Shown here: positions 8,778-26,600 of the stretch, one piece after another | Position numbering within the stretch: the stretch's first letter is position 1 | Layout of the letters: every line of letters begins with the position of its first letter | Source of the DNA: Clostridia bacterium | GTDB lineage: Bacteria > Bacillota > Clostridia > Oscillospirales > CAG-272 | DNA: 64,000 nucleotides | Direction of reading: 5' to 3' | Assembly (NCBI GenBank): GCA_017631855.1 | Contig: JAGBSP010000004.1 | Location: forward strand, 81-64,080 | Notes under the pieces: model-generated | What the model was told of the DNA's origin: nothing | Databases searched by the model: none | Seen by the model: only the letters and a program-made list of their open reading frames with translations | Made by a program: the position numbers and the translations under genes

Positions 8778-9081
8778 GCAGACTGCAAAAGAAGACCATA
8801 CACCTTAAGATCGAATCTCACCTTTACGCGATCTTCGCTCCTCCTGCTCCAAGCAGGCTGCCTCGCGGCACATCGGGCTTACTGATTAATGCTGCTTGGT
8901 TCCCCACCTGACATGGTTCACAGCGCCCAATTGCGCAAGACCCGCTCTTCAACGCAGCAGGACACGACTCAGACCGTATCGGATCAACCCTCAAAAAAGG
9001 AATGAACCCCTGCTGTAGCGGATTTCAGGTTCAGGGCACCGCTAATTCCCCGGCTGGTATGGCCTTATTTCGCAGTCTGCG
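8778..9081 (-). ncRNA. ffs: signal recognition particle RNA, large Bacillus type (scRNA/ffs)
   Basis: The minus strand contains TTAGCGGTGCCCTGAACCTGAAATCCGCTACAGCAGGGG (Alu-domain region). It also contains GAACCATGTCAGGTGGGGAACCAAGCAGCATTAATCAG...ATGTGCCGC (domain IV). These match the B. subtilis scRNA pattern from memory. A 9-bp closing helix (GCAGACUGC/GCAGUCUGC) is followed by a U-run. Its position upstream of dnaX is conserved. Ends are approximate. Confidence 0.8.
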
Positions 9082-9135: not shown

Positions 9136-9159
9136 TAGGATTTTGAAATTTTTATAGAA

Positions 9160-9206
9160 AAGAAGACAAAAGAAATTATGGAGATCGAGCTCTGCCCGAT
9201 CTCCAT
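9160..9206 (-). terminator. rho-independent terminator after the N/Q-tail ORF
   Basis: Perfect 10-bp inverted repeat atggagatcg/cgatctccat (9178-9187 and 9197-9206), followed on the minus strand by a T-rich run. Confidence 0.6.
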
Positions 9207-9228
9207 AATTTCTAAACCATTCCCATTT

Positions 9229-9564
9229 TTAGCGAGCGTTGTTCTGCTTGTTCTGAGAATTGTTCTGATTCTGATTGTTCTGCTTGTTCTGATTCTGATT
9301 GTTTTGATTCTGATTGTTTTGATTCTGATTGTTCTGATTGTTCTGATTCTTGTTGTTTTGATTATTCTGAGAGTTGTTTTGGTTCTGATTGTTGTACTGC
9401 ATCTTCAGCTCCGTTTCTCCGTCGACAGAAAAATAAGAATAACAGTCGTAGGTCGACGGAACAGGACTGTTAAAGCACATCACACGTAACGTCGTAACGT
9501 CCGTGGGAAGTACGACGTTAGTATGTGCCACAACCCTTGGCAATATACAGTTTTCTAAAAACAA
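9229..9564 (-). CDS. hypothetical small protein with a C-terminal Asn/Gln-only tract
   Basis: This is the ORF envelope. Possible starts are TTG 9564 (3 nt after the upstream stop), ATG 9480, or ATG 9402 (GGAG 6 nt upstream). It is co-directional with the upstream genes and followed by a terminator. The start, and even coding status, are uncertain. Confidence 0.45.
   Translation of the reverse strand: MFLENCILPRVVAHTNVVLPTDVTTLRVMCFNSPVPSTYDCYSYFSVDGETELKMQYNNQNQNNSQNNQNNKNQNNQNNQNQNNQNQNNQNQNKQNNQNQNNSQNKQNNAR
9238..9393. repeat. imperfect tandem repeat, unit about 15 nt (gattctgattgtt[c/t]t), in frame
   Basis: Direct reading of 9238-9393. It encodes the N/Q tract on the minus strand and an L/I/V tract on the plus strand. 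Confidence 0.8.
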
Positions 9565-9567
9565 AGT

Positions 9568-11001
9568 TTATTCCAACATATATTTTTCTTCAATTGCCGA
9601 TAAAACCAAAGACATCGCACGAATGAACAATCCTATACAAAAGGCAAGAAGCACAATATTGATCGTTTTCAACCAACCATAATGGTTCTGAATATTACTA
9701 AACGTGCCAAAGATTGCCTCGCCATCGACATAAAGTCCACTAAGCATTGGAGCAAAAATGTCATAACATATATCCGATATGCCATAGAGGACGGCAGAAA
9801 TCATAGCAAAAAAGACCGGTCGACGAAGCTCCTTATGTAGCTCTTTTTCCATAGATATGATTCGCTCGTCAATACGCTCTCTCCCAATCTCTGTTCCCGT
9901 ATGTGTTTTGATTGTTTGACACAATGCTCGGGTGACCAAATACACCACCCACAAAAACGAAAGAACCTTCAATAGATTACAAACCACGTAAGCGCTATAC
10001 AGAAGCATCGCCGTATCGTTTTTCACGATAGCGGTAAAGGAATAATTTATAAAAAACCTTTGTTCAAGCAAAAAAGATACAACAGAGGTCATCAAATAAA
10101 ATCCTGATGCTATCATCCACGGTGCTTTGGTGATAACAATGTTACGCGACAACGTAAGAAAAATAAACACCACAGCAATTGCTGAAAAAATATCAGGAAA
10201 TATTGTTACTCCATCCAAACGATAATCCATACTGAAAATCAACGCAAGGATCAAAAAAAGATACGAGAGCTTAAATCTTCTTTGGATAAATCTTCCAATC
10301 TTCGGCTGAACGTTAGTTTTGTAGGCACCGGATAACGAGGCGATTAGTGTTTTATCGTGACGAAAATGATAAAAATAGCGTTGCATACGGAAAAGCCAAA
10401 CAATTCCAAAAATCAAAACGACAAGAATGGCAAACCCACGCATCAATCCGATGTATCGATAAATATTGACAAATCCGCTATCTTCCTGATAGGAGGTATT
10501 CGAGAGATCGGCAAACTCGGGAAGCACCGTAAAAATCGATTTGATACAAATAAAGACAATGGTTACCTTCTTGATTCGATCGGTAGCACTTTTTCCTTTT
10601 TTCATAGTACCGAGAATAGAGGTGTTGGGATAGAAATAACCCAATTTTGAAATGCCATCAAAAAGCTTTGTGTAAGTTGGAAGCAAAAAAATCAACTCTA
10701 AGGTGGTAAAGACAAACGTCCAAAGCAATACCGAAGAGTTCTTTTCTCCCGTCACAGACATCGTAAACGTGATGAAGATGGCAAGCCATTTGGCGGCATC
10801 GACCCAAATCATTTTTCGAAAAATCGAAACCGCACTCTCAATTTCTTCATTTAAATCTACCAATTTAGAAAACGCCAGACAAAGGAAAATATATCCGACA
10901 AAATCAGGAAGAGGATCGATCAAATGTAGGGTCGGATTGAATAAAAAACATAACGCGAAAATAATCCAGGAAAGTCCCAAAAAATCTTTTGTTTGTTTCA
11001 T
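9568..11001 (-). CDS. hypothetical multipass membrane protein (477 aa)
   Basis: Many hydrophobic segments. The start overlaps the upstream stop (ATGA at 10998-11001). No family recognised. Confidence 0.8.
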   Translation of the reverse strand: MKQTKDFLGLSWIIFALCFLFNPTLHLIDPLPDFVGYIFLCLAFSKLVDLNEEIESAVSIFRKMIWVDAAKWLAIFITFTMSVTGEKNSSVLLWTFVFTTLELIFLLPTYTKLFDGISKLGYFYPNTSILGTMKKGKSATDRIKKVTIVFICIKSIFTVLPEFADLSNTSYQEDSGFVNIYRYIGLMRGFAILVVLIFGIVWLFRMQRYFYHFRHDKTLIASLSGAYKTNVQPKIGRFIQRRFKLSYLFLILALIFSMDYRLDGVTIFPDIFSAIAVVFIFLTLSRNIVITKAPWMIASGFYLMTSVVSFLLEQRFFINYSFTAIVKNDTAMLLYSAYVVCNLLKVLSFLWVVYLVTRALCQTIKTHTGTEIGRERIDERIISMEKELHKELRRPVFFAMISAVLYGISDICYDIFAPMLSGLYVDGEAIFGTFSNIQNHYGWLKTINIVLLAFCIGLFIRAMSLVLSAIEEKYMLE

Positions 11002-11666
11002 CTTTTTTTCCTTTCTTTCCTTTTATTAAGCTTTTCTTTTCGGTATGCTTCGGTTTCAGCTCTTGCTTTTTCTTCTCTGCGGTCAAATTCCTCACGAAAA
11101 TGATTTACCCACGCAAAGCGAGAGGGTTTTCTTGCCATTTCCGCGTCTTTTTCATCACAAATGTTCGCGTAGCATTGACCAAACAGAATCATATTTAAGA
11201 GTATACACGAGAAATACAAAATCAAGGAAATAATTCGCAGTTCTCCGCGCACTCTCTCAATCACGTCAAACGGAAGATATTCTAAAACACAAACAATGTA
11301 GTAAAAAGAAATGAAAATAAAATTCCGTATTGATGCATCCGCAAGCTTTTTCACGCCTGTTTCTCTCGAAATTTTCAAAATCGCGTACAGAAGTAAAGAG
11401 AGAAATACAAAAGAAAATCCCTGCTCTATATAGCCGATGATATCCTTATAGATTCCCGCAATATCGGTGTAAACAAATGCTCCCGAAACAAAAAGCATCC
11501 CAAGCGTTGTAAAGACAGAAAATTGAAACGCCCGATGATATTTTTGAAGCTTTAAGAGTGCCACGAAGATAATTCCGTATCCTAGAATTCGAAAAACGGA
11601 ACCGAGAGGATTTAACGTCATAAAATTTGCGACGAAATACCCGATAAAAAGTAATCCGAAGCCCAT
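10998..11666 (-). CDS. hypothetical multipass membrane protein (222 aa) with a K/R/E-rich tail
   Basis: Start moved to ATG 11666, which has an AGGAG RBS. The longer ORF overlaps the secA 3' end. The N-terminus resembles that of the 477-aa neighbour. Confidence 0.75.
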   Translation of the reverse strand: MGFGLLFIGYFVANFMTLNPLGSVFRILGYGIIFVALLKLQKYHRAFQFSVFTTLGMLFVSGAFVYTDIAGIYKDIIGYIEQGFSFVFLSLLLYAILKISRETGVKKLADASIRNFIFISFYYIVCVLEYLPFDVIERVRGELRIISLILYFSCILLNMILFGQCYANICDEKDAEMARKPSRFAWVNHFREEFDRREEKARAETEAYRKEKLNKRKERKKR

Positions 11667-11684: not shown

Positions 11685-11715
11685 AGCGACACGATCCAAG
11701 ATGGATCGTGTCGCT
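11685..11715 (-). other. GC-rich 13-bp hairpin between secA and the membrane-protein cassette, with no U-tract
   Basis: agcgacacgatcc/ggatcgtgtcgct with a 5-nt loop. On the minus strand it is followed by CAAAAAAGGAG (the RBS), not a U-run. Confidence 0.5.
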
Positions 11716-11722
11716 ATCCAAT

Positions 11723-14479
11723 TTATTGCTGATTGTTCGCGGGAGCACCGCAACACTTTTTGTATTTTTTACCCGAGCCGCAAGGACAAAGATCATTTCT
11801 CCCCGTGGATTCCTCAGCACGGCGAACAACACTTACCTTTTTCGGCTTTTTCTGTTCGCTTCCTTCAAAGCCTTCCATGAGGGGTTTTGCCAACTGAACG
11901 CGCTTCATTTCAGGCGTATGAACGGTGACCGATAGAATCATACGAACCGTACGGTCACGAATGTCACTAACCATAGCATCAAACATATCCGCTCCCTGAA
12001 TACGGTATTCGTTGACAGGATCGCGCTGTGCATAGGACTGCAGGCGAATGCTGTCCTTGAGATCCTCCATCGCATCGATGTGATCCATCCAATTTCGGTC
12101 TACATTCTGCAAAAGCACCGAGCGCTCCAGCTCGCGGAAGCGTTCCTCTCCGACAAGCGCCTCTTTTTCGTGATACAGCGCCAGCGCACGGTCGCAAAGC
12201 TCCTCACAGATCGCGTCGCGCTTCACCTTCTTGAGCTCGTTTTCTTCATACTGGAAGTCCTCGGGCGTGGTCAAAATTCCCTTGTACGCTTCGCGAAGTC
12301 CCGTGAAATCCCAAAGCTCAGCTTCATCTCCGTGGAGATAGGTGTCTACGTTTTCACGAACGGTCGCCAAAATCATCTTTTGAACGGTATTGGTGATATC
12401 TTCACCGCGAAGAACGTCGTTTCTCTGCTTGTAAATGACGTTTCTCTGCTGATTCATTACGTCATCATAGGTAAGGACGTGCTTTCTGCGCTTGAAGTTC
12501 TGATCCTCAATTCTCTTTTGAGCGCCCTCAATTCGATTGGAAAGAATCTTAGCATCGATCGGCATATCGTCGGGAAGTCCCAAACGGTCAACGACTCCCA
12601 TCAAGTGCTCCGAACCAAACAAACGCATCAGATCGTCTTGCAACGAAAGATAAAATTTCGACTCACCGGGGTCGCCCTGACGTCCCGAACGACCGCGCAG
12701 CTGGTTATCAATTCGTCGGCTTTCGTGGCGCTCGGTACCGAGAATATACAAGCCGCCCGCTTCGCGAACCTGTTCTGCCTCGGGAGCGATTTCTTGCTTG
12801 AATTTCTCATACAGCTCTCGGAAAATCTTTCTGGCGTTCTGAATCTCTTCGTCGTCAATCTCCGCCGTACCCGTTGCCATTGCGATCAGATCGTCGTCAA
12901 TCTCCATTTTGCGCATTTCTTTTTTCGCCATATATTCGGCGTTACCGCCAAGCATAATGTCGGTTCCGCGTCCAGCCATATTGGTAGAGATCGTAACTGC
13001 GCCAAGCTTACCTGCCTGAGCCACGATTTCAGCCTCTCGGTCGTGGTATTTTGCATTCAGAACGGTATGCGCAATCCCATGCCGCTTGAGTCTGCGAGAA
13101 AGCTCCTCGGACTTATCGATCGAAACTGTACCGACAAGCACAGGCTGTCCTTTTTCGTGACATTTTATAATCTGCTGAATCACGGCATCGTATTTTCCTT
13201 CTACCGTCTTATACACGGCATCCGAATGATCACGACGAATCATCGGACGGTTCGTCGGAATTTCAATCACGTCAAGTCCGTAAATTTCACGGAATTCAAG
13301 ATCCTCGGTCAGCGCCGTACCCGTCATACCCGAAAGCTTCGAATACATTCTGAAATAGTTCTGGAAGGTAATCGTTGCCAGCGTCTTGTTTTCTTTTTCG
13401 ATACGGACGCCTTCCTTGGCTTCGATGGCTTGATGCAGTCCGTTCGAATAACGTCTGCCGGGCATCAAACGACCGGTAAACGCGTCAACGATCATAACGC
13501 CCTGATCGTTCACTACGTAATCCACGTCGCGCTTCATAATACCGTGTGCGCGAATGGCTTGATTGATATGGTGCGCAATCTCGGAGTTTTCGGGATCGGA
13601 GAGATTGTTAATAGCAAAAAACTCTTCCGCTTTCTTCGCGCCGTTCGGCGTCAGAATCGCGTTGTTTGCCTTTTCGTCTACAATATAGTCGGCATCGATA
13701 TCGTCATAGCTTTCCTTGGAATCCATTTCCTTGATGACGAATTTTCGCATCTTTCTTGCAACCGCATCGGCACGGTCGTACAGATCGGTCGACTTTTCGC
13801 CGGCACCCGAAATGATCAGAGGGGTTCTTGCCTCGTCAATCAAGATCGAGTCCACCTCGTCAACGATGGCAAAATTGTGTCCGCGCTGTACCATATTTTC
13901 CTGATAAACCACCATATTGTCGCGCAGATAATCAAATCCGAATTCGTTGTTGGTTCCGTAGGTAATGTCCGCCGCATAGGACTCTCTCTTTTGCGAGGGA
14001 GTCAAGCCGTGCGCAACAAGTCCCGTGCGAAGTCCCATAAATTCAAATACTCTGCCCATTTCCTCGCTGTCACGGCGCGCAAGGTAGTCGTTTACCGTAA
14101 CAACGTGAACACCTTTTCCCGTCAATGCATTCAAATAGGCGGGCATTGTAGCAACAAGCGTCTTACCTTCACCCGTTTTCATTTCGGCAATTCTGCCCTG
14201 ATGGAGAATGATACCGCCGATGATCTGTACGCGGAACGGACGCTTTCCGAGAATACGGTCGTCTGCCTCACGAATCGCGGCGTACGCATCCGCCATAATA
14301 TCCTCCAAGGTTTCTCCCTCAGCAAGGCGCGCCTTCAAAAGCTCGGTCGTTCCAGAGAGCTCCTCGTTCGACATTGCCGCATACTTCGGCGCCAAGGATT
14401 CAATATAGTCTACGAATTTATCTATTTTCTTTAACTGTCTTTCGCTATACGTACCAAAGAGTTTGTTTCCGAGTCCCAT
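11723..14479 (-). CDS. secA: preprotein translocase ATPase SecA
   Basis: Start at MGLGNKLFG (ATG 14479) with a GGAGG RBS. It has the DEAD-like motor motifs and a C-terminal zinc motif CPCGSGKKYKKCCG. Confidence 0.96.
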   Translation of the reverse strand: MGLGNKLFGTYSERQLKKIDKFVDYIESLAPKYAAMSNEELSGTTELLKARLAEGETLEDIMADAYAAIREADDRILGKRPFRVQIIGGIILHQGRIAEMKTGEGKTLVATMPAYLNALTGKGVHVVTVNDYLARRDSEEMGRVFEFMGLRTGLVAHGLTPSQKRESYAADITYGTNNEFGFDYLRDNMVVYQENMVQRGHNFAIVDEVDSILIDEARTPLIISGAGEKSTDLYDRADAVARKMRKFVIKEMDSKESYDDIDADYIVDEKANNAILTPNGAKKAEEFFAINNLSDPENSEIAHHINQAIRAHGIMKRDVDYVVNDQGVMIVDAFTGRLMPGRRYSNGLHQAIEAKEGVRIEKENKTLATITFQNYFRMYSKLSGMTGTALTEDLEFREIYGLDVIEIPTNRPMIRRDHSDAVYKTVEGKYDAVIQQIIKCHEKGQPVLVGTVSIDKSEELSRRLKRHGIAHTVLNAKYHDREAEIVAQAGKLGAVTISTNMAGRGTDIMLGGNAEYMAKKEMRKMEIDDDLIAMATGTAEIDDEEIQNARKIFRELYEKFKQEIAPEAEQVREAGGLYILGTERHESRRIDNQLRGRSGRQGDPGESKFYLSLQDDLMRLFGSEHLMGVVDRLGLPDDMPIDAKILSNRIEGAQKRIEDQNFKRRKHVLTYDDVMNQQRNVIYKQRNDVLRGEDITNTVQKMILATVRENVDTYLHGDEAELWDFTGLREAYKGILTTPEDFQYEENELKKVKRDAICEELCDRALALYHEKEALVGEERFRELERSVLLQNVDRNWMDHIDAMEDLKDSIRLQSYAQRDPVNEYRIQGADMFDAMVSDIRDRTVRMILSVTVHTPEMKRVQLAKPLMEGFEGSEQKKPKKVSVVRRAEESTGRNDLCPCGSGKKYKKCCGAPANNQQ

Positions 14480-14600
14480 CCTAAGACCTCCAAAAAATAT
14501 ATTCATATTATTATACTACATTTTTGACTTTTTTTCAAGAGGTTTATCGTTGTAGCGCAGGAAATGATTGTAAACTTTTTTCTTTTTCTCGCCAAATCTC

Positions 14601-18405: not shown

Positions 18406-19884
18406 TTAAAGAATAATACAAATTAAGCCGCCGCTACCCTCATTGATGATTCTCTCGAGGGTTTCGGAGAGCTTCGTACGCGATTCCTCGGGCATATGCT
18501 CGAGCTTGGTGTGAAGTCCCTCGTTGACGAGTTCATAAAGGCTCTTACCAAAGACGTTGGATTCCCAGATCTTTTGCGGCTCTTCCTCAAACTCCCTTAA
18601 CATATAGCGAACGAGCTCTTCGGACTGTTGCTCTGTTCCCACGATCGGATTGATCTCGGTTTCGATATTGGCGCGAATGAGGTGAATGGATTGTGCCGAA
18701 GCGCAAAGACGAACGCCATAACCGCCCGACTGTTTTACGATCTGCGGCTCTTCGAGATGAAGCTCCTCAATGCTCGGCATTACGATGCCGTATCCCTTCT
18801 CTTCTGCCATTGCAAGCGCCTCGGAAACACGCTCGTACTGTCCCTTCATCACGGAAAGCTCTTGCAAAAGCTCAATGAGCGCTCGCTCTCCCGTAATTTC
18901 AAATCCGCTTAGCTCACTAAGCACCGAATAATACAACGCGTCGTCAAAAGCGAGACGGAGCTTTGCCTTTCCCGTACCGAGATCAATTTCTTCGATGCGA
19001 ACACCGCACACGTACTCGTTATTTTCAAGATCGCCAAACGCATTTTTCAAGTCGCCTGTTTTATGAATTTTATCTGCGCAAGCGCAAAGAGAGCTTTGCA
19101 ACGAAGCTTTGATCTTGTGATCGGCATCCAGTGCTTCCATCCAAACGGGCAATTCTACAGAAATTTCCGACACGGGAAATTCGTGAAGTACAAGCTCAAG
19201 AATATGACGGATATCTTCTGCATCAAGATCAATACAGCTCACCAACGCCACGGGAACGTCGTACTTTGCCTCCAGCTCATAGGCAAGCGCGATCGCCGCT
19301 TCCGACGAAGGATTTGCAGAATTCAAGACCATTGCAAAGGGTTTTCCAATGCTTTTTAATTCGTTGACGATTCGCTCCTCGGCAGGAACGTAGCTTTCTC
19401 TTGAAATCTCACCGATCGTTCCGTCGGTCGTAATCAGCATACCGATGGTCGAATGCTCCTGAATGACCTTCTCCGTTCCCATTTCTGCGGCTTCAACAAA
19501 GGGCATCGGCTCTTCCTGCCACGGCGTATGTACCATGCGAGCCTGACCGTTTTCAATCGTACCGAGGGCTTCGGAAACGATATATCCGACGCAATCGATC
19601 ATTTTAACGCGCAAGGACGCACAGTCGTCAATTTTGATCGTTACCGCCTCGTCAGGTACAAACTTCGGCTCGGTAGTCATCACCGTTTTTCCTGCGGCAG
19701 ATTGCGGCATTTCATCGCGTGCACGATCTCTGGAATAGTTGTCGTCGATATTCGGCAACACCAAGGACTCCATAAAACGCTTGATAAAGGTCGACTTTCC
19801 CGTACGAACGGGACCAACGACGCCAATATAGATATCACCGCCCGTTCTTTCGGCAATATCTCGGTAAATCGAATGCTCAGCCAT
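18406..19884 (-). CDS. spoIVA: stage IV sporulation protein A (spore coat morphogenetic ATPase)
   Basis: 492 aa. The N-terminus IYIGVVGPVRTGKSTFIKRFME carries Walker A. SpoIVA-typical over its full length. Confidence 0.96.
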   Translation of the reverse strand: MAEHSIYRDIAERTGGDIYIGVVGPVRTGKSTFIKRFMESLVLPNIDDNYSRDRARDEMPQSAAGKTVMTTEPKFVPDEAVTIKIDDCASLRVKMIDCVGYIVSEALGTIENGQARMVHTPWQEEPMPFVEAAEMGTEKVIQEHSTIGMLITTDGTIGEISRESYVPAEERIVNELKSIGKPFAMVLNSANPSSEAAIALAYELEAKYDVPVALVSCIDLDAEDIRHILELVLHEFPVSEISVELPVWMEALDADHKIKASLQSSLCACADKIHKTGDLKNAFGDLENNEYVCGVRIEEIDLGTGKAKLRLAFDDALYYSVLSELSGFEITGERALIELLQELSVMKGQYERVSEALAMAEEKGYGIVMPSIEELHLEEPQIVKQSGGYGVRLCASAQSIHLIRANIETEINPIVGTEQQSEELVRYMLREFEEEPQKIWESNVFGKSLYELVNEGLHTKLEHMPEESRTKLSETLERIINEGSGGLICIIL

Positions 19885-23454: not shown

Positions 23455-24009
23455 TTATTCGGAAAGAATGATCTCTTTGATCGTCATCGTCAAACTCACA
23501 GTTTCCGTATGCACCTCCACAGTCTGTCCAGGTGCCAAATAACGAGTTCCGTTCACCAAAAAACCGCTCTCCTCGGAATAGGATCCTTCGCATAAGATTT
23601 TTCCTTCCACATCTACGCGGGCATCCATCGATTCACTGTTAGGATAGAAAACCTGGACGGTGTTTCCGTTTTGATCCACAAAATATTCGGAAGCAGGGGT
23701 CGGACGCAAGGCATTGAAAGATTCTGCAGAATATCCCATCAACTCTCCCAATTTCTCTCCGTCTTCTGCATAATAAACGACGTCATCAATATCCAGATAG
23801 TTCGTCGTAGATCTTCGGATATTCTGAACCGAAAAGGATACGACATATTCCTTCATATCTTTTTGATTTTTCAAGGTTTCAAATACATTATAACGAAAGT
23901 AAATACCAACGACCGAGGTAATTATCAAAAGAATAATTACGGCGTCTAACACCTTAAATCTCGGGCCTTGTTGGCTCCGTTCTTGCTTTTTTATTCTTTT
24001 TTCTTTCAT
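23455..24009 (-). CDS. N-terminally membrane-anchored envelope protein (DUF4330-like), copy 2
   Basis: 184 aa: basic N-terminus, one TM segment, then a beta-rich domain. It is a paralogue of the adjacent gene. The family name is recalled from memory. Confidence 0.7.
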   Translation of the reverse strand: MKEKRIKKQERSQQGPRFKVLDAVIILLIITSVVGIYFRYNVFETLKNQKDMKEYVVSFSVQNIRRSTTNYLDIDDVVYYAEDGEKLGELMGYSAESFNALRPTPASEYFVDQNGNTVQVFYPNSESMDARVDVEGKILCEGSYSEESGFLVNGTRYLAPGQTVEVHTETVSLTMTIKEIILSE

Positions 24010-24025
24010 AACCGATTACCTCTTT

Positions 24026-24571
24026 TCAGTCAACATCGGTTTCTAAACCGATACAGTATCCTTCAGAAACATAATCCGGGAAACGAAGCGATAGCTTTTC
24101 TCCCACAGCAATTCTCGTTGCATTGACCGAATATCCGCTCTCTTTCAAATAATCTGCTGTCGCGGAAATTGTTACGAGCAAATTGTACTTATTGGGATAT
24201 TCCGAAAGAATACCTTCCCCTTCCATACCGTTTTCCACATATTGAAGCTCAGAGTATTTCGTATTATAGTCTACGGCAACCACCGTTCCCATATTATTTT
24301 TTGATACCGAATTGATTACCAGGTCGTCTTCCTTAATTCTATCGATAAATTCCTGATCCACACCTAAAAACTCTACCGTATATTGAATTTCTTTCGTTTG
24401 ATTGGATGCTAGATTTTTAATCAGAGAAATCGGCGAAAATACCTGAACGAGAATCGCGACAACCAACAAAATGAGTACAACTAAAATCAAATCGATCAAA
24501 TTAAAACGACCGACTCTTTTTTTCTTCTTGGCTTTTCCAAAAGAGGAAGTTCCATTGATTGAATTGTTCAT
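24026..24571 (-). CDS. N-terminally membrane-anchored envelope protein (DUF4330-like), copy 1
   Basis: 181 aa with the same architecture (RFNLIDLILVVLILLVV...). Confidence 0.7.
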   Translation of the reverse strand: MNNSINGTSSFGKAKKKKRVGRFNLIDLILVVLILLVVAILVQVFSPISLIKNLASNQTKEIQYTVEFLGVDQEFIDRIKEDDLVINSVSKNNMGTVVAVDYNTKYSELQYVENGMEGEGILSEYPNKYNLLVTISATADYLKESGYSVNATRIAVGEKLSLRFPDYVSEGYCIGLETDVD

Positions 24572-24599
24572 TGTTCAAAATCCTTTCTGTAACTTTGGA

Positions 24600-26600
24600 T
24601 CAAAAATCAAGATCCATTGCTGCACTGTTTTCTTCATTGACAACAAGATAATTCTTTCTACTTTCCTCTGCACGCCCTACTCGAATACACGCACAAGCGA
24701 GCCCGAGAAGTGCCCAAAAGAGAAAGAAAATTCTGTAGTTATACCAAATAAAATCGAAAAGTCCCATCACTAGTGCGCCAACGATGGAGCACATACAAGC
24801 AATCACAAAAATTTTTGCCCGAACGTTTTGACTCTGCTTTAAATATTCAAAATTCATTTGTGCCGCAAGGAAAAGAATACAGAAGAAGCTCAAAAGACCG
24901 CCGATACCAAGTCCAATAAAAATTTGCAAGAACAAACTATGACTGTGCTCTGCTGCTTCAATTCCGGCATACGCAAATTGAGGATATACGTTTTGATATG
25001 CGGACGTTCCGTAACCAATTCCGCTCATAAAATATTCCTTGATCAAATTCCAAGAGCCTTTCCACGTATAATAGCGGTATGCCGTAGAAGAATCCGCAAG
25101 ATTGCCGATGCTCAAAAATCGTTTTGTAATCGAGTTTGGCAAAAGCATCGACCAAAACGGAATGGTCAACGCGAAAAGGAAAATCGACCGCAGCGTTTTT
25201 TTAGAGTAAATCAACCCAAAGACCAACAGGCAAGTGATGGTTGCAAGCCATGCCCCTCTTGACCAAGTCAAAACAATACATACAAGAACCGCGAACAACG
25301 AAATAAAGTATAATACCTTTTCTCTTCCGCGTTGCGCATATAAAAACATCAACAATACAAACGGAAGAATCAACACCAAATAAGACGCAAGTACGTTGGG
25401 ATTATCAAAGAAAGACACCGCCCGACGCGAAATATCGGAAAAATATTCACGATCGACCCAAGCATTCACTAACACCGAGGCAAAGAAATATTGAATAATC
25501 CCCCAAATCGCAACGACAGTACCAGAAGAAACAAGAGCCAAGACACAGCGTTTTAACCACAGCTCGGTTCTTATTAAGTTGACTGTTAAGAAATACCCCA
25601 ACATTAGACAGCAGGAGAGCAATACCTCGTTAAGACCTTTTTTTCCGCCCGCTGTAATCGTACCGGAAAAGAAGAGCAATAGGAAGAACAGCAACACAGA
25701 AAGATCGATCAATTCAATGCGCAAAATTCTCTTGCCTCGAATCAGCTTGATAAAGTACGAAATCGCTGTCAGCAATACTACAATGCCTAAAATGGTAGCG
25801 GGAATCTCAAAGAAGGATAAGAAAGGTAAGAAAAATAGGGAAAACAACACTCCGATTTCAGGCGTGTTCAAAATGATGACAACCGAAAAAATCAAAAGAA
25901 GAGCTAGCAAAATGAGCAAGGGATGAACAAAGAGTGTAATCATTCCAAGAATCATTCCAAGGAAAACAAGGATATTGTTTTTTGCTCTGCTTCCCTTTTG
26001 CGGAATTTCAAAGCATTCCTTGCGGTATCCTAAGAATTCAGAGCAAAGCATGTTGGTAATTACACCTGAATCCAATGCTTGTGCCAAGCTATCTTTAGAA
26101 AGAAATGTGGGGAGTGCTATAATACATACCGAAAATCCCGTAATAAAATACCCGATGTCGGATTGAGGCAAGCTTGGAACGACCAAACGGATCAAATAAA
26201 CCAATACGGTATAAACGCCGAAGAAAAAGAGTGATTTTCCGTAAGCTCGTAATGAAACACCAAGCCACGAGCGTGCCATGTTTTTCGTTTTATTCAAAAA
26301 CCAGCTGGTTTCAAAGGCTTTGGAAATATATTGACGAAATTTCCAAAAAAACGCCTTAAACTTTGCACTGATGAAATGATTTCTGAGAAATCCATTCTCA
26401 AAAGCATCCTGTTCTTTGGAATATGCCGTGAAAATTTTGGCAAAGAAACCACTATAAAGAGCGTGATAGATTGCGTTAGAGAATTTATCCAACAAAAACA
26501 AAATCAATCCAAGCGATGCTGTGGATTTTTCGGACTTTCGTTCCGCAGAATCAATTCCCGCATCCGCTGTATGAATTTTATTTTTCTTCAATCCAATCAC
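24600..26600 (-). CDS. O-antigen ligase (Wzy_C) family membrane protein
   Basis: 666 aa, polytopic, with the characteristic LTWSRGAWL loop motif. The start overlaps the trmD stop by 4 nt. Confidence 0.8.
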   Translation of the reverse strand: MIGLKKNKIHTADAGIDSAERKSEKSTASLGLILFLLDKFSNAIYHALYSGFFAKIFTAYSKEQDAFENGFLRNHFISAKFKAFFWKFRQYISKAFETSWFLNKTKNMARSWLGVSLRAYGKSLFFFGVYTVLVYLIRLVVPSLPQSDIGYFITGFSVCIIALPTFLSKDSLAQALDSGVITNMLCSEFLGYRKECFEIPQKGSRAKNNILVFLGMILGMITLFVHPLLILLALLLIFSVVIILNTPEIGVLFSLFFLPFLSFFEIPATILGIVVLLTAISYFIKLIRGKRILRIELIDLSVLLFFLLLFFSGTITAGGKKGLNEVLLSCCLMLGYFLTVNLIRTELWLKRCVLALVSSGTVVAIWGIIQYFFASVLVNAWVDREYFSDISRRAVSFFDNPNVLASYLVLILPFVLLMFLYAQRGREKVLYFISLFAVLVCIVLTWSRGAWLATITCLLVFGLIYSKKTLRSIFLFALTIPFWSMLLPNSITKRFLSIGNLADSSTAYRYYTWKGSWNLIKEYFMSGIGYGTSAYQNVYPQFAYAGIEAAEHSHSLFLQIFIGLGIGGLLSFFCILFLAAQMNFEYLKQSQNVRAKIFVIACMCSIVGALVMGLFDFIWYNYRIFFLFWALLGLACACIRVGRAEESRKNYLVVNEENSAAMDLDF

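Follow-up and report, generated by a model that had tools for sequence, protein, structure and literature searches.

Organization of the secA-A-B locus

In the genome of a Clostridia bacterium (GTDB lineage Bacteria; Bacillota; Clostridia; Oscillospirales; CAG-272), the gene secA is followed by two adjacent genes, here called A and B, which encode polytopic membrane proteins and are the subject of this analysis. The window denotes the whole stretch of DNA that was analysed, i.e., 64,000 nucleotides (nt) of contig JAGBSP010000004.1 (NCBI GenBank assembly GCA_017631855.1, positions 81 to 64,080 of the forward strand). On the minus strand of the window, secA is followed by a 56-nt spacer, gene A, gene B, a gene for an asparagine- and glutamine-rich protein (N/Q gene), a terminator, SRP RNA, dnaX, ybaB and recR. 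The secA-A-B part of the locus consists of the following features:

14538-14510, minus strand: sigma-70-like promoter TTGAAA-17-TATAAT upstream of secA
11723-14506, minus strand: secA open reading frame (ORF) as called, first ATG at 14506
11723-14479, minus strand: secA ORF, with the SecA Pfam domains seen on orthologues; first gene of the transcription unit
11685-11715, minus strand: hairpin in the secA-A spacer with a perfect 14-bp stem, followed by an A-run and the ribosome-binding site (RBS), without U-run
10998-11666, minus strand: gene A, 222 residues, ATG at 11666, RBS AAAGGAG 7 nt upstream
9568-11001, minus strand: gene B, 477 residues

Genes A and B are joined by an ATGA at 10998-11001, in which the start codon of B (11001-10999) overlaps the stop codon of A (TGA, 11000-10998), and they are translationally coupled to each other. 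The coordinates after secA and the overlap given in a preliminary description, made from the letters of this DNA alone, are thereby confirmed for the minus strand. Terminator-like sites are found neither in the secA-A spacer nor at the A/B junction, and the minus-strand matches in between lie only within the coding sequence of secA and A. Since A and B share the strand with secA and no terminator separates them, they are very probably transcribed together with secA. The SecA N-terminus is conserved from the methionine at 14479 (MGLGNKLFG...), and the ORF's first ATG, at 14506, falls within or upstream of the predicted promoter and start of transcription; the start of secA is likely Met 14479 and not the ATG at 14506. 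This secA is the housekeeping copy with all domains including the C-terminal SEC-C zinc finger.

The hairpin in the secA-A spacer is strong (RNAfold −24.6 kcal/mol, z = −6.3), and of the 24 related loci whose secA-A spacers measure 35-120 nt, 17 have a hairpin there too, with an unrelated sequence. Its probable role is that of an intercistronic element for RNA stability or processing, by which A and B are kept lower than secA, and an excess of secA over A/B brought about in this way agrees with the lower GC content at third codon positions (GC3) of A and B.

The two genes were earlier described as visibly AT-rich, and the GC contents of 0.377 (A) and 0.379 (B) bear this out when compared with 0.496 in secA and 0.45 over the whole window. 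This is not a mark of a foreign cassette, an idea that was considered and rejected: the low GC resides mainly in the first codon position, the GC3 values of A (0.37) and B (0.40) resemble those of other low-expression genes and are near those of dnaX and recR (0.43-0.44), the other membrane-protein genes of the window have similar GC contents (0.40-0.415), and the position of the pair is kept clade-wide.

A and B constitute an undescribed family

Searches of Pfam-A, NCBIfam and PADLOC gave no match above cut-off for A or B, and a family scan of 51 A and 41 B members returned no family in more than five members, with every match below cut-off. The weak sub-threshold Pfam matches were Na_Ca_ex in 2 of the 51 A members (E = 6e-4) and ACR_tran in 2 of the 41 B members (E = 0.009). 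When profiles were compared with the PDB sequences, only designer PPR repeat artefacts (no stretch passing alone) and noise at E > 0.5 were obtained. Foldseek searches of the PDB with the AlphaFold2 models reached a best E of 0.5 with template-modelling scores (TM-scores) of at most 0.23 for B, and a best E of 1.7 with TM-scores of at most 0.49 to generic six-helix bundles for A; the viral predicted structures of BFVD, searched with Foldseek, held no match for either protein, and a literature search found nothing on the family. The A/B pair is therefore an undescribed family with no detectable relative among the families and folds of the libraries tested, and the initial impression that neither a family nor an enzyme motif or transporter signature can be recognised holds for the family, PDB-profile and Foldseek searches alike, which yielded no usable match.

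The family is large. For A, more than 207 clusters at 90% identity were found; for B, a word-indexed search gave 65 clusters at 90% identity and an exhaustive hidden Markov model search 1,396 representatives at 50% identity, of which 877 fell below 1e-30. All database members carry the name 'hypothetical protein' and all come from metagenome-assembled genomes of uncultured Clostridia, Oscillospiraceae or Eubacteriales from rumen or gut.

Three diverged copies of one module

The preliminary description had proposed, by eye, that the N-termini of A and B resemble each other and that B consists of the small module in duplicate. A pairwise BLASTP comparison of A and B detects no similarity (E = 1.2), and the relationship emerges at the level of profiles. 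With first alignments of 51 A sequences (A1) and 41 B sequences (A2), profile-profile comparison matched the N-terminal ~145 residues with a probability of 70.5% (E = 3.9e-5). With larger profiles drawn from related loci (83 A and 80 B sequences), hhalign paired the A core with residues 1-235 of B at 92.9% (E = 3.6e-7), residues 1-235 of B with residues 236-477 at 92.8% (E = 4e-7, 201 columns), and the A core with residues 236-477 at 85.9% (E = 5.3e-6). Reversed profiles as control reached probabilities of 0.5-16.6% (score 15-28), and the MatE, Wzy_C and permease genes of the window at most 1.8% (score 11-23). The profile alignments pair exactly those segments that had been picked by eye, so that the resemblance of the N-termini goes beyond chance and the internal duplication of B is recovered; over the three module comparisons the probabilities are 86-93%, with controls at most 17%.

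Moreover, a related locus, L081, encodes an A-type protein that adjoins a distant B, reads MGFGLLFVGF...GVDIFPDVIGYIL and bears the B hallmark 'ID-x-LPDFIGY', also noted as the B motif 'D-x-FPD-x-IGY'. It matches A with a probability of 98.6% (E = 5e-16), and its subfamily (A3) matches B with 92.5% (E = 4.7e-7). This protein is thus a natural intermediate, i.e., a true A with a B motif. Based on the profile matches, the low controls and this intermediate, A and the two halves of B are three diverged copies of one module with six transmembrane (TM) helices.

Predicted architecture and conserved residues

The alignment-averaged hydropathy reveals six hydrophobic segments in A and 12 in B, and the AlphaFold2 models, both confident, agree with the multipass topology suspected before. 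The model of A (predicted local distance difference test, pLDDT, 84.1; predicted TM-score, pTM, 0.71) contains six TM helices plus a helix at residues 185-221; for B, pLDDT is 81.6 and pTM 0.72. In both proteins, loops rich in lysine and arginine alternate with loops poor in these residues (positive-inside rule), which argues for an N-in/C-in orientation of A and B and for parallel halves of B. A is accordingly a predicted 6-TM protein and B a predicted 12-TM protein, both N-in/C-in. Each module opens with a helix, a short loop and a helix, and in B this loop contains a small beta-hairpin; the loops TM1-2 and TM7-8 of B comprise 6 and 13 residues. The two modules of B are the following:

10297-11001, minus strand: module 1 of B, residues 1-235, six TM helices; motifs N22-P23, D29, P32-D33 and L160-P161-E162
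9568-10296, minus strand: module 2 of B, residues 236-477 plus stop codon, second 6-TM copy; D259 and P269-D270

Most of the best-conserved residues of B, and all of its invariant acidic residues, are located in predicted outer loops. In a motif census of 80 B relatives, D29 is present in 80/80, P32-D33 in 79/80 and P161-E162 in 79/80. The P-D of module 2 is replaced (PN, PS, PG, PA or similar) in 16 of the 80, and most A proteins are devoid of any P-D. One module hence retains the predicted outer-face site and two are degenerating. A two-aspartate catalytic dyad, in which a P-D from two modules would always be kept and A would compensate by supplying the one lost from module 2 of B, was considered and rejected, because 15 of the 16 partner A proteins of the B proteins without D270 have no P-D and only the L081 pair fits. 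The conserved features of A are the N-terminal MGFGLLFIGY, a cytoplasmic motif CYxxICDExDxxMxxKPSRFxFVN after TM6 and, following it, a helix rich in lysine, arginine and glutamate. The strongly charged tail reported for A is also borne out by the alignment average, with 15.4 K+R and 11.2 D+E in the C-terminal region.

This architecture allows for readings other than a role in protein export. A and B might be a channel, or a secondary transporter of some small solute or cation, that merely rides on the secA promoter and is unrelated to export, a reading nearly as likely as the Sec accessory proposed below. The repeated modules would then build a pore, and D29, D33 and E162 together with the short N-P/P-D helical hairpins would form a binding site or selectivity filter. 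Internal 6-TM repeats are typical of transporters, and B fits this pattern. Furthermore, two short hydrophobic segments of 14 + 14 residues (AlphaFold2 helices of 9 and 11 residues) carry invariant acidic and proline residues at their tips, the near-invariant E102 and K154 of B (at least 90% of 41 sequences) lie in or beside predicted TM helices, and the few sub-threshold Na_Ca_ex and ACR_tran matches point in the same direction. Against this, no transporter family or fold was matched at a meaningful threshold, and, since module 2 can do without the motif and A lacks it, a symmetric pore is not conserved.

It is improbable that B is an outer-face enzyme of envelope biogenesis, or a flippase or transferase for lipid-linked precursors, with A as its partner subunit. 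The D29...D33 pair (D-x-x-x-D) in the first outer loop and the P-E in the third recall the DxD/ExD motifs of GT-C enzymes, and the polytopic architecture would be suitable. The PDB holds many GT-C, SEDS, MurJ and WaaL structures, so the empty Foldseek result for B given above speaks against such an enzyme, as do the lack of Pfam or NCBIfam matches and of any consistent set of cell-wall or polysaccharide genes near the A/B loci. The envelope association suggested in the preliminary description is conjectural.

Conserved linkage to secA and a putative accessory of the Sec translocase

The conservation of the locus was followed in a scan of one genome per GTDB species, in which 154 species possess a relative of A; the best 80 loci were examined. 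A later set comprised the seven loci holding the most distant B homologues (25-31% identity). In the first scan the order secA, A, B on one strand was found at 79 of the 79 loci with room for B, and together with five of the seven later loci it holds at 84/84 informative loci. Each of the distant B homologues is preceded by an A-like gene of 209-243 residues, and upstream of this gene stands secA, save at L087, where the 3.5-kb contig begins with A itself. The genes around the trio vary in this set: L081 is flanked by SHMT and a 574-residue gene upstream and by UDG downstream, L083 has a sigma-factor gene, L084 MatE and L086 pcrA downstream. A and B overlap by 4 nt at 12 loci, and elsewhere the distance between them mostly does not exceed 40 nt. 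Between secA and A the median gap is 24 nt, with 3 nt or less in 12/79 loci, and at L084 the stop codon of secA overlaps the start of A. SecA identity across the set is 56-95% (at least 60% in full-length matches), and the identities of A and B fall to 24-30%. The A/B pair is thus fast-evolving, confined to one clade and, at the loci examined, never seen apart from secA, and A and B travel together next to secA at all informative loci.

Because of this unbroken linkage including stop/start overlaps, A and B are here proposed to form a putative heteromeric membrane complex that is made with SecA and works beside the Sec translocase, a reading to which we assign a probability of roughly one in three. 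In the cytoplasmic membrane, the three modules of A and B would come together as a single heteromer with 18 TM helices, and the complex would be produced in step with SecA as a lineage-specific accessory beside SecA/SecYEG. Module 1 of B would be the working part, with its acidic/proline cluster of D29, P32-D33 and P161-E162 at the outer face, where exported chains emerge. With its cytoplasmic juxtamembrane motif and its charged helix, A could offer a docking site to a partner in the cytoplasm, SecA for example. A and module 2 of B, which have largely lost the outer motif, would act as scaffold. It is a more doubtful proposal that A/B are an unrecognised Sec accessory of three modules (6+6+6 TM), stoichiometric with SecA in a large clade of uncultured gut Clostridia, that acts on emerging polypeptides or on translocon energetics via an acidic outer-face site and is unlike SecDF, YajC, YidC and the solved folds.

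Several observations weigh against this proposal of a Sec accessory. Neither Pfam and NCBIfam nor Foldseek revealed similarity to SecDF, YidC, YajC or another Sec component, and conservation of the basic tail of A does not extend to the L081 subfamily. A and B are much faster-evolving than SecA, with 24-30% identity where SecA is 65-70% identical. The strong secA-A hairpin in many lineages and GC3 values clearly lower in A and B than in secA suggest that A/B expression is lower than, and uncoupled from, that of secA. All carriers of A/B belong to one clade (SecA identity at least 60%), and the constant order could thus reflect inherited synteny; trmL-mnmA, the divergent gene pair upstream, is mostly conserved as well. 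Finally, secA is followed by prfB across the Firmicutes, and prfB has no export role, so that membership in the secA operon is no proof of a shared function. The same precedent supports the unrelated channel or transporter, which is nearly as likely as the Sec accessory, as it provides an example of an unrelated gene in a secA operon. In turn, an absolute linkage to secA with stop/start overlaps would be unusual for a solute transporter.

To our knowledge, the bacterial Sec pathway is regarded as fully inventoried, with SecYEG, SecA, SecDF-YajC, YidC and a few chaperones. A family of ~1,400 clusters at 50% identity that is tied to secA and has no detectable relative or known fold is new either as an accessory of export or as an architecture of membrane transport. 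As A and B occur only in uncultured Clostridia of the herbivore and human gut, where function is mostly inferred by homology, the family marks a real blind spot of annotation. Moreover, one module that keeps the site next to two that degenerate offers a clean system for studying the evolution of pseudo-symmetric membrane proteins.

The N/Q gene is a separate, probably forespore-expressed unit

The gene that follows B was initially seen as the third member of a compact three-gene unit, starting 3 nt after B. This view did not survive closer analysis. The ORF at this distance is a purely mechanical one, the real start is the ATG at 9402 of a 57-residue protein, and the N/Q gene has its own promoter and terminator and follows B in 39/75 loci only. 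The features of this region are the following:

9519-9548, minus strand: sigma-G/F-type promoter of the N/Q gene, GTATA at 9548-9544, 18-nt spacer, CATACTA at 9525-9519; starts 20 nt past the stop codon of B
9419-9470, minus strand: element in the 5' untranslated region (5'UTR) of the N/Q gene, possible H-type pseudoknot; stem S1 9470-9465/9447-9442, stem S2 9459-9452/9426-9419
9229-9402, minus strand: N/Q gene, 57 residues (MQYNNQNQNN...), ATG at 9402 behind a GGAG RBS
9171-9213, minus strand: intrinsic terminator with a 20-bp stem and a T-run, which ends the N/Q gene and any read-through from secA-A-B
8796-9062, minus strand: SRP RNA (Rfam, 153.8 bits), the only Rfam match above threshold

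With 30 asparagines and 18 glutamines, 48 of the 57 residues (84%) are N or Q. The codons are mixed (AAC 16 and AAT 14, CAG 14 and CAA 4), and this mixing of synonymous codons together with the conserved ATG, RBS and MQNN start argues for a coding gene. A mere tandem repeat of DNA was rejected for the same reasons, and Tandem Repeats Finder detected only imperfect arrays. A longer ORF of 111 residues with a TTG start at 9564 was also discarded, as its first 54 codons span the promoter and the 5'UTR and contain indels of 1 and 2 nt in the closest relatives, in which the DNA just upstream of the N/Q ATG is almost invariant. On the plus strand, a 103-residue ORF 'LILIVLLVLILIV...' at 9178-9489 is an antisense reading of the N/Q codon repeat and no gene.

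The promoter matches the forespore sigma-G consensus of Bacillus subtilis, GHATR-N17/18-CATXHTA, at 11/11 positions. Among the N/Q leaders 26/40 score at least 10/11, as compared to a mean of 3.6 (maximum 10) in shuffled sequences and three for the reverse complement. Upstream of A the motif reaches this score at 1/81 loci only (shuffle mean 2.7). An ORF beginning with 'MQNN' behind a GGAG RBS follows B in 39 of the 75 loci with room for it, over the whole divergence range, and in the remaining 36 other genes follow B; the genes downstream of the N/Q gene vary by locus (SRP RNA/dnaX, pcrA and others). Its own sigma-G-type promoter, its own terminator, the presence in 39/75 loci and the absence of the motif before A place the N/Q gene outside the A/B unit, and it is a separate unit that is probably expressed in the forespore. 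At L016, L023 and L025, inspection of the leaders showed a terminator-like hairpin with a T-run within the first ~45 nt after the stop codon of B, which separates the B and N/Q units there; the loop of this hairpin holds the −35-like element (TGAATA) of the N/Q promoter. Five loci without N/Q gene (L008, L018, L019, L014, L044) contain another conserved ORF of 63-106 residues ~130-390 nt after B, which includes ...KSIDNEFRCDNIFK...QPYLDS..GKWGRGKDD.P.....

In the possible pseudoknot of the 5'UTR, S1 (ACAGTC/GACTGT) is interleaved with S2 (CCGTCGAC/GTCGACGG), and the 3' arm of S2 abuts the RBS. The 5'UTR is near-identical in the window, L001 and L002, though B is only 58-79% identical there, and it is better conserved than the neighbouring coding DNA; the possible pseudoknot is conserved in the nearer relatives. 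In nine sequences 99.2% of the cells are paired, with two compensatory pairs. A permissive Rfam search of the N/Q leader (9150-9620) gave only sub-threshold noise. A function of the N/Q gene as leader or attenuator, or of its product as SecM-like substrate, was rejected in view of its downstream position, the absence of a signal or TM segment, the varied next genes and its own promoter.

The full-length spoIVA gene with all three Pfam domains at 18406-19884 (minus strand) shows that the source organism is an endospore former. This, the sigma-G-type promoter and the occurrence of the N/Q gene after B over the whole divergence range would be compatible with A, B and the N/Q protein forming one sporulation module, with A and B as forespore or spore-membrane proteins. 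Such a module is very improbable, since A and B belong to the vegetative secA unit behind a sigma-70-like promoter with practically no sigma-G-type motif before A, about half of the loci are without N/Q gene, and a terminator-like hairpin stands between B and the N/Q gene in several loci.

The N/Q protein may instead be a storage or protective spore protein similar to the gamma-type SASP (small acid-soluble spore proteins) that merely neighbours A/B. SASP genes depend on sigma-G, and SspE, the Gln/Asn-rich gamma-type SASP, was reported to be absent from all clostridial genomes (PMC3533761). Like sspE of the Bacillales, the N/Q gene is small and monocistronic, with a sigma-G-type promoter, a strong terminator and a low-complexity Gln/Asn-rich product. 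It differs from SspE in lacking sequence similarity and in its far more extreme N+Q content of 84%. No SASP family was among the Pfam/NCBIfam matches even at E up to 1, and no GPR site resembling E-(F/I)-x-S-E is visible in the 57 residues. If this assignment is true, Clostridia would have in the N/Q protein their first nitrogen-rich spore protein of a gamma-SASP-like kind.

Elsewhere in the window, two tandem DUF4330 paralogues (184 and 181 residues) lie directly downstream of a 666-residue Wzy_C (O-antigen ligase-like) protein (23455-26600, minus strand).

Comparison with known systems

Among the glycosyltransferases, the GT-C enzymes carry an acidic DxD or ExD motif in the first extracytoplasmic loop. 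In B, the invariant D29 and D33 lie in the first outer loop, in a spacing and context other than those of the GT-C motifs, and no GT-C structure was among the Foldseek PDB matches of B. Exchangers of the CaCA type consist of two alpha-repeats (GxSxPE/D) with inverted 5-TM halves, whereas B possesses LPDF/LPEF motifs and parallel 6-TM halves; Na_Ca_ex stayed below cut-off (2/51 A members) and no CaCA structure was among the Foldseek matches. For the YidC/Oxa1 insertases, which have a 60KD_IMP core with a hydrophilic groove, there was neither a Pfam/NCBIfam match nor a YidC structure among the Foldseek matches of A/B, and the only trait in common with A is a basic C-terminal tail, which the L081 subfamily does not keep.

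Genes kept next to secA and cotranscribed with it, as A and B are proposed to be, are known from secA-prfB in the Firmicutes and secM-secA in E. coli. As prfB encodes a soluble translation factor without export role, linkage to secA alone is weak evidence. The gene secM lies upstream of secA and encodes an exported arrest peptide, whereas A and B lie downstream, are polytopic and occur in one clade. In the accessory Sec systems of Gram-positive bacteria (SecA2/SecY2/Asp1-5), additional membrane and accessory proteins are encoded beside secA, as A and B are. These loci have a second, specialised SecA. Here, however, secA is the housekeeping gene with full domains and SEC-C, 60-95% conserved and flanked by trmL/mnmA and SRP RNA/dnaX, and no secY2, asp or glycosyltransferase genes were found at the A/B loci (neighbours trmL, mnmA, SRP RNA, dnaX, ybaB and recR).

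With regard to SecDF, neither a Pfam SecD_SecF match nor a Foldseek match to a SecDF or RND structure was obtained for A/B. In SecD and SecF a large extracytoplasmic domain separates TM1 from TM2 in each half, at the place where B has loops of 6-13 residues, and in A/B a third module is present on a separate chain, A. Moreover, SecDF is not normally encoded in the secA operon, whereas A and B directly follow secA. B nonetheless shares with SecDF, which is fused in Bacillus subtilis, the composition of two homologous 6-TM halves with 12 TM helices in total. SecDF(-YajC) is an accessory of the RND superfamily that is driven by the proton-motive force, is genetically tied to the export machinery and acts at the outer face, and it is in these last two respects that A and B are proposed to resemble it.

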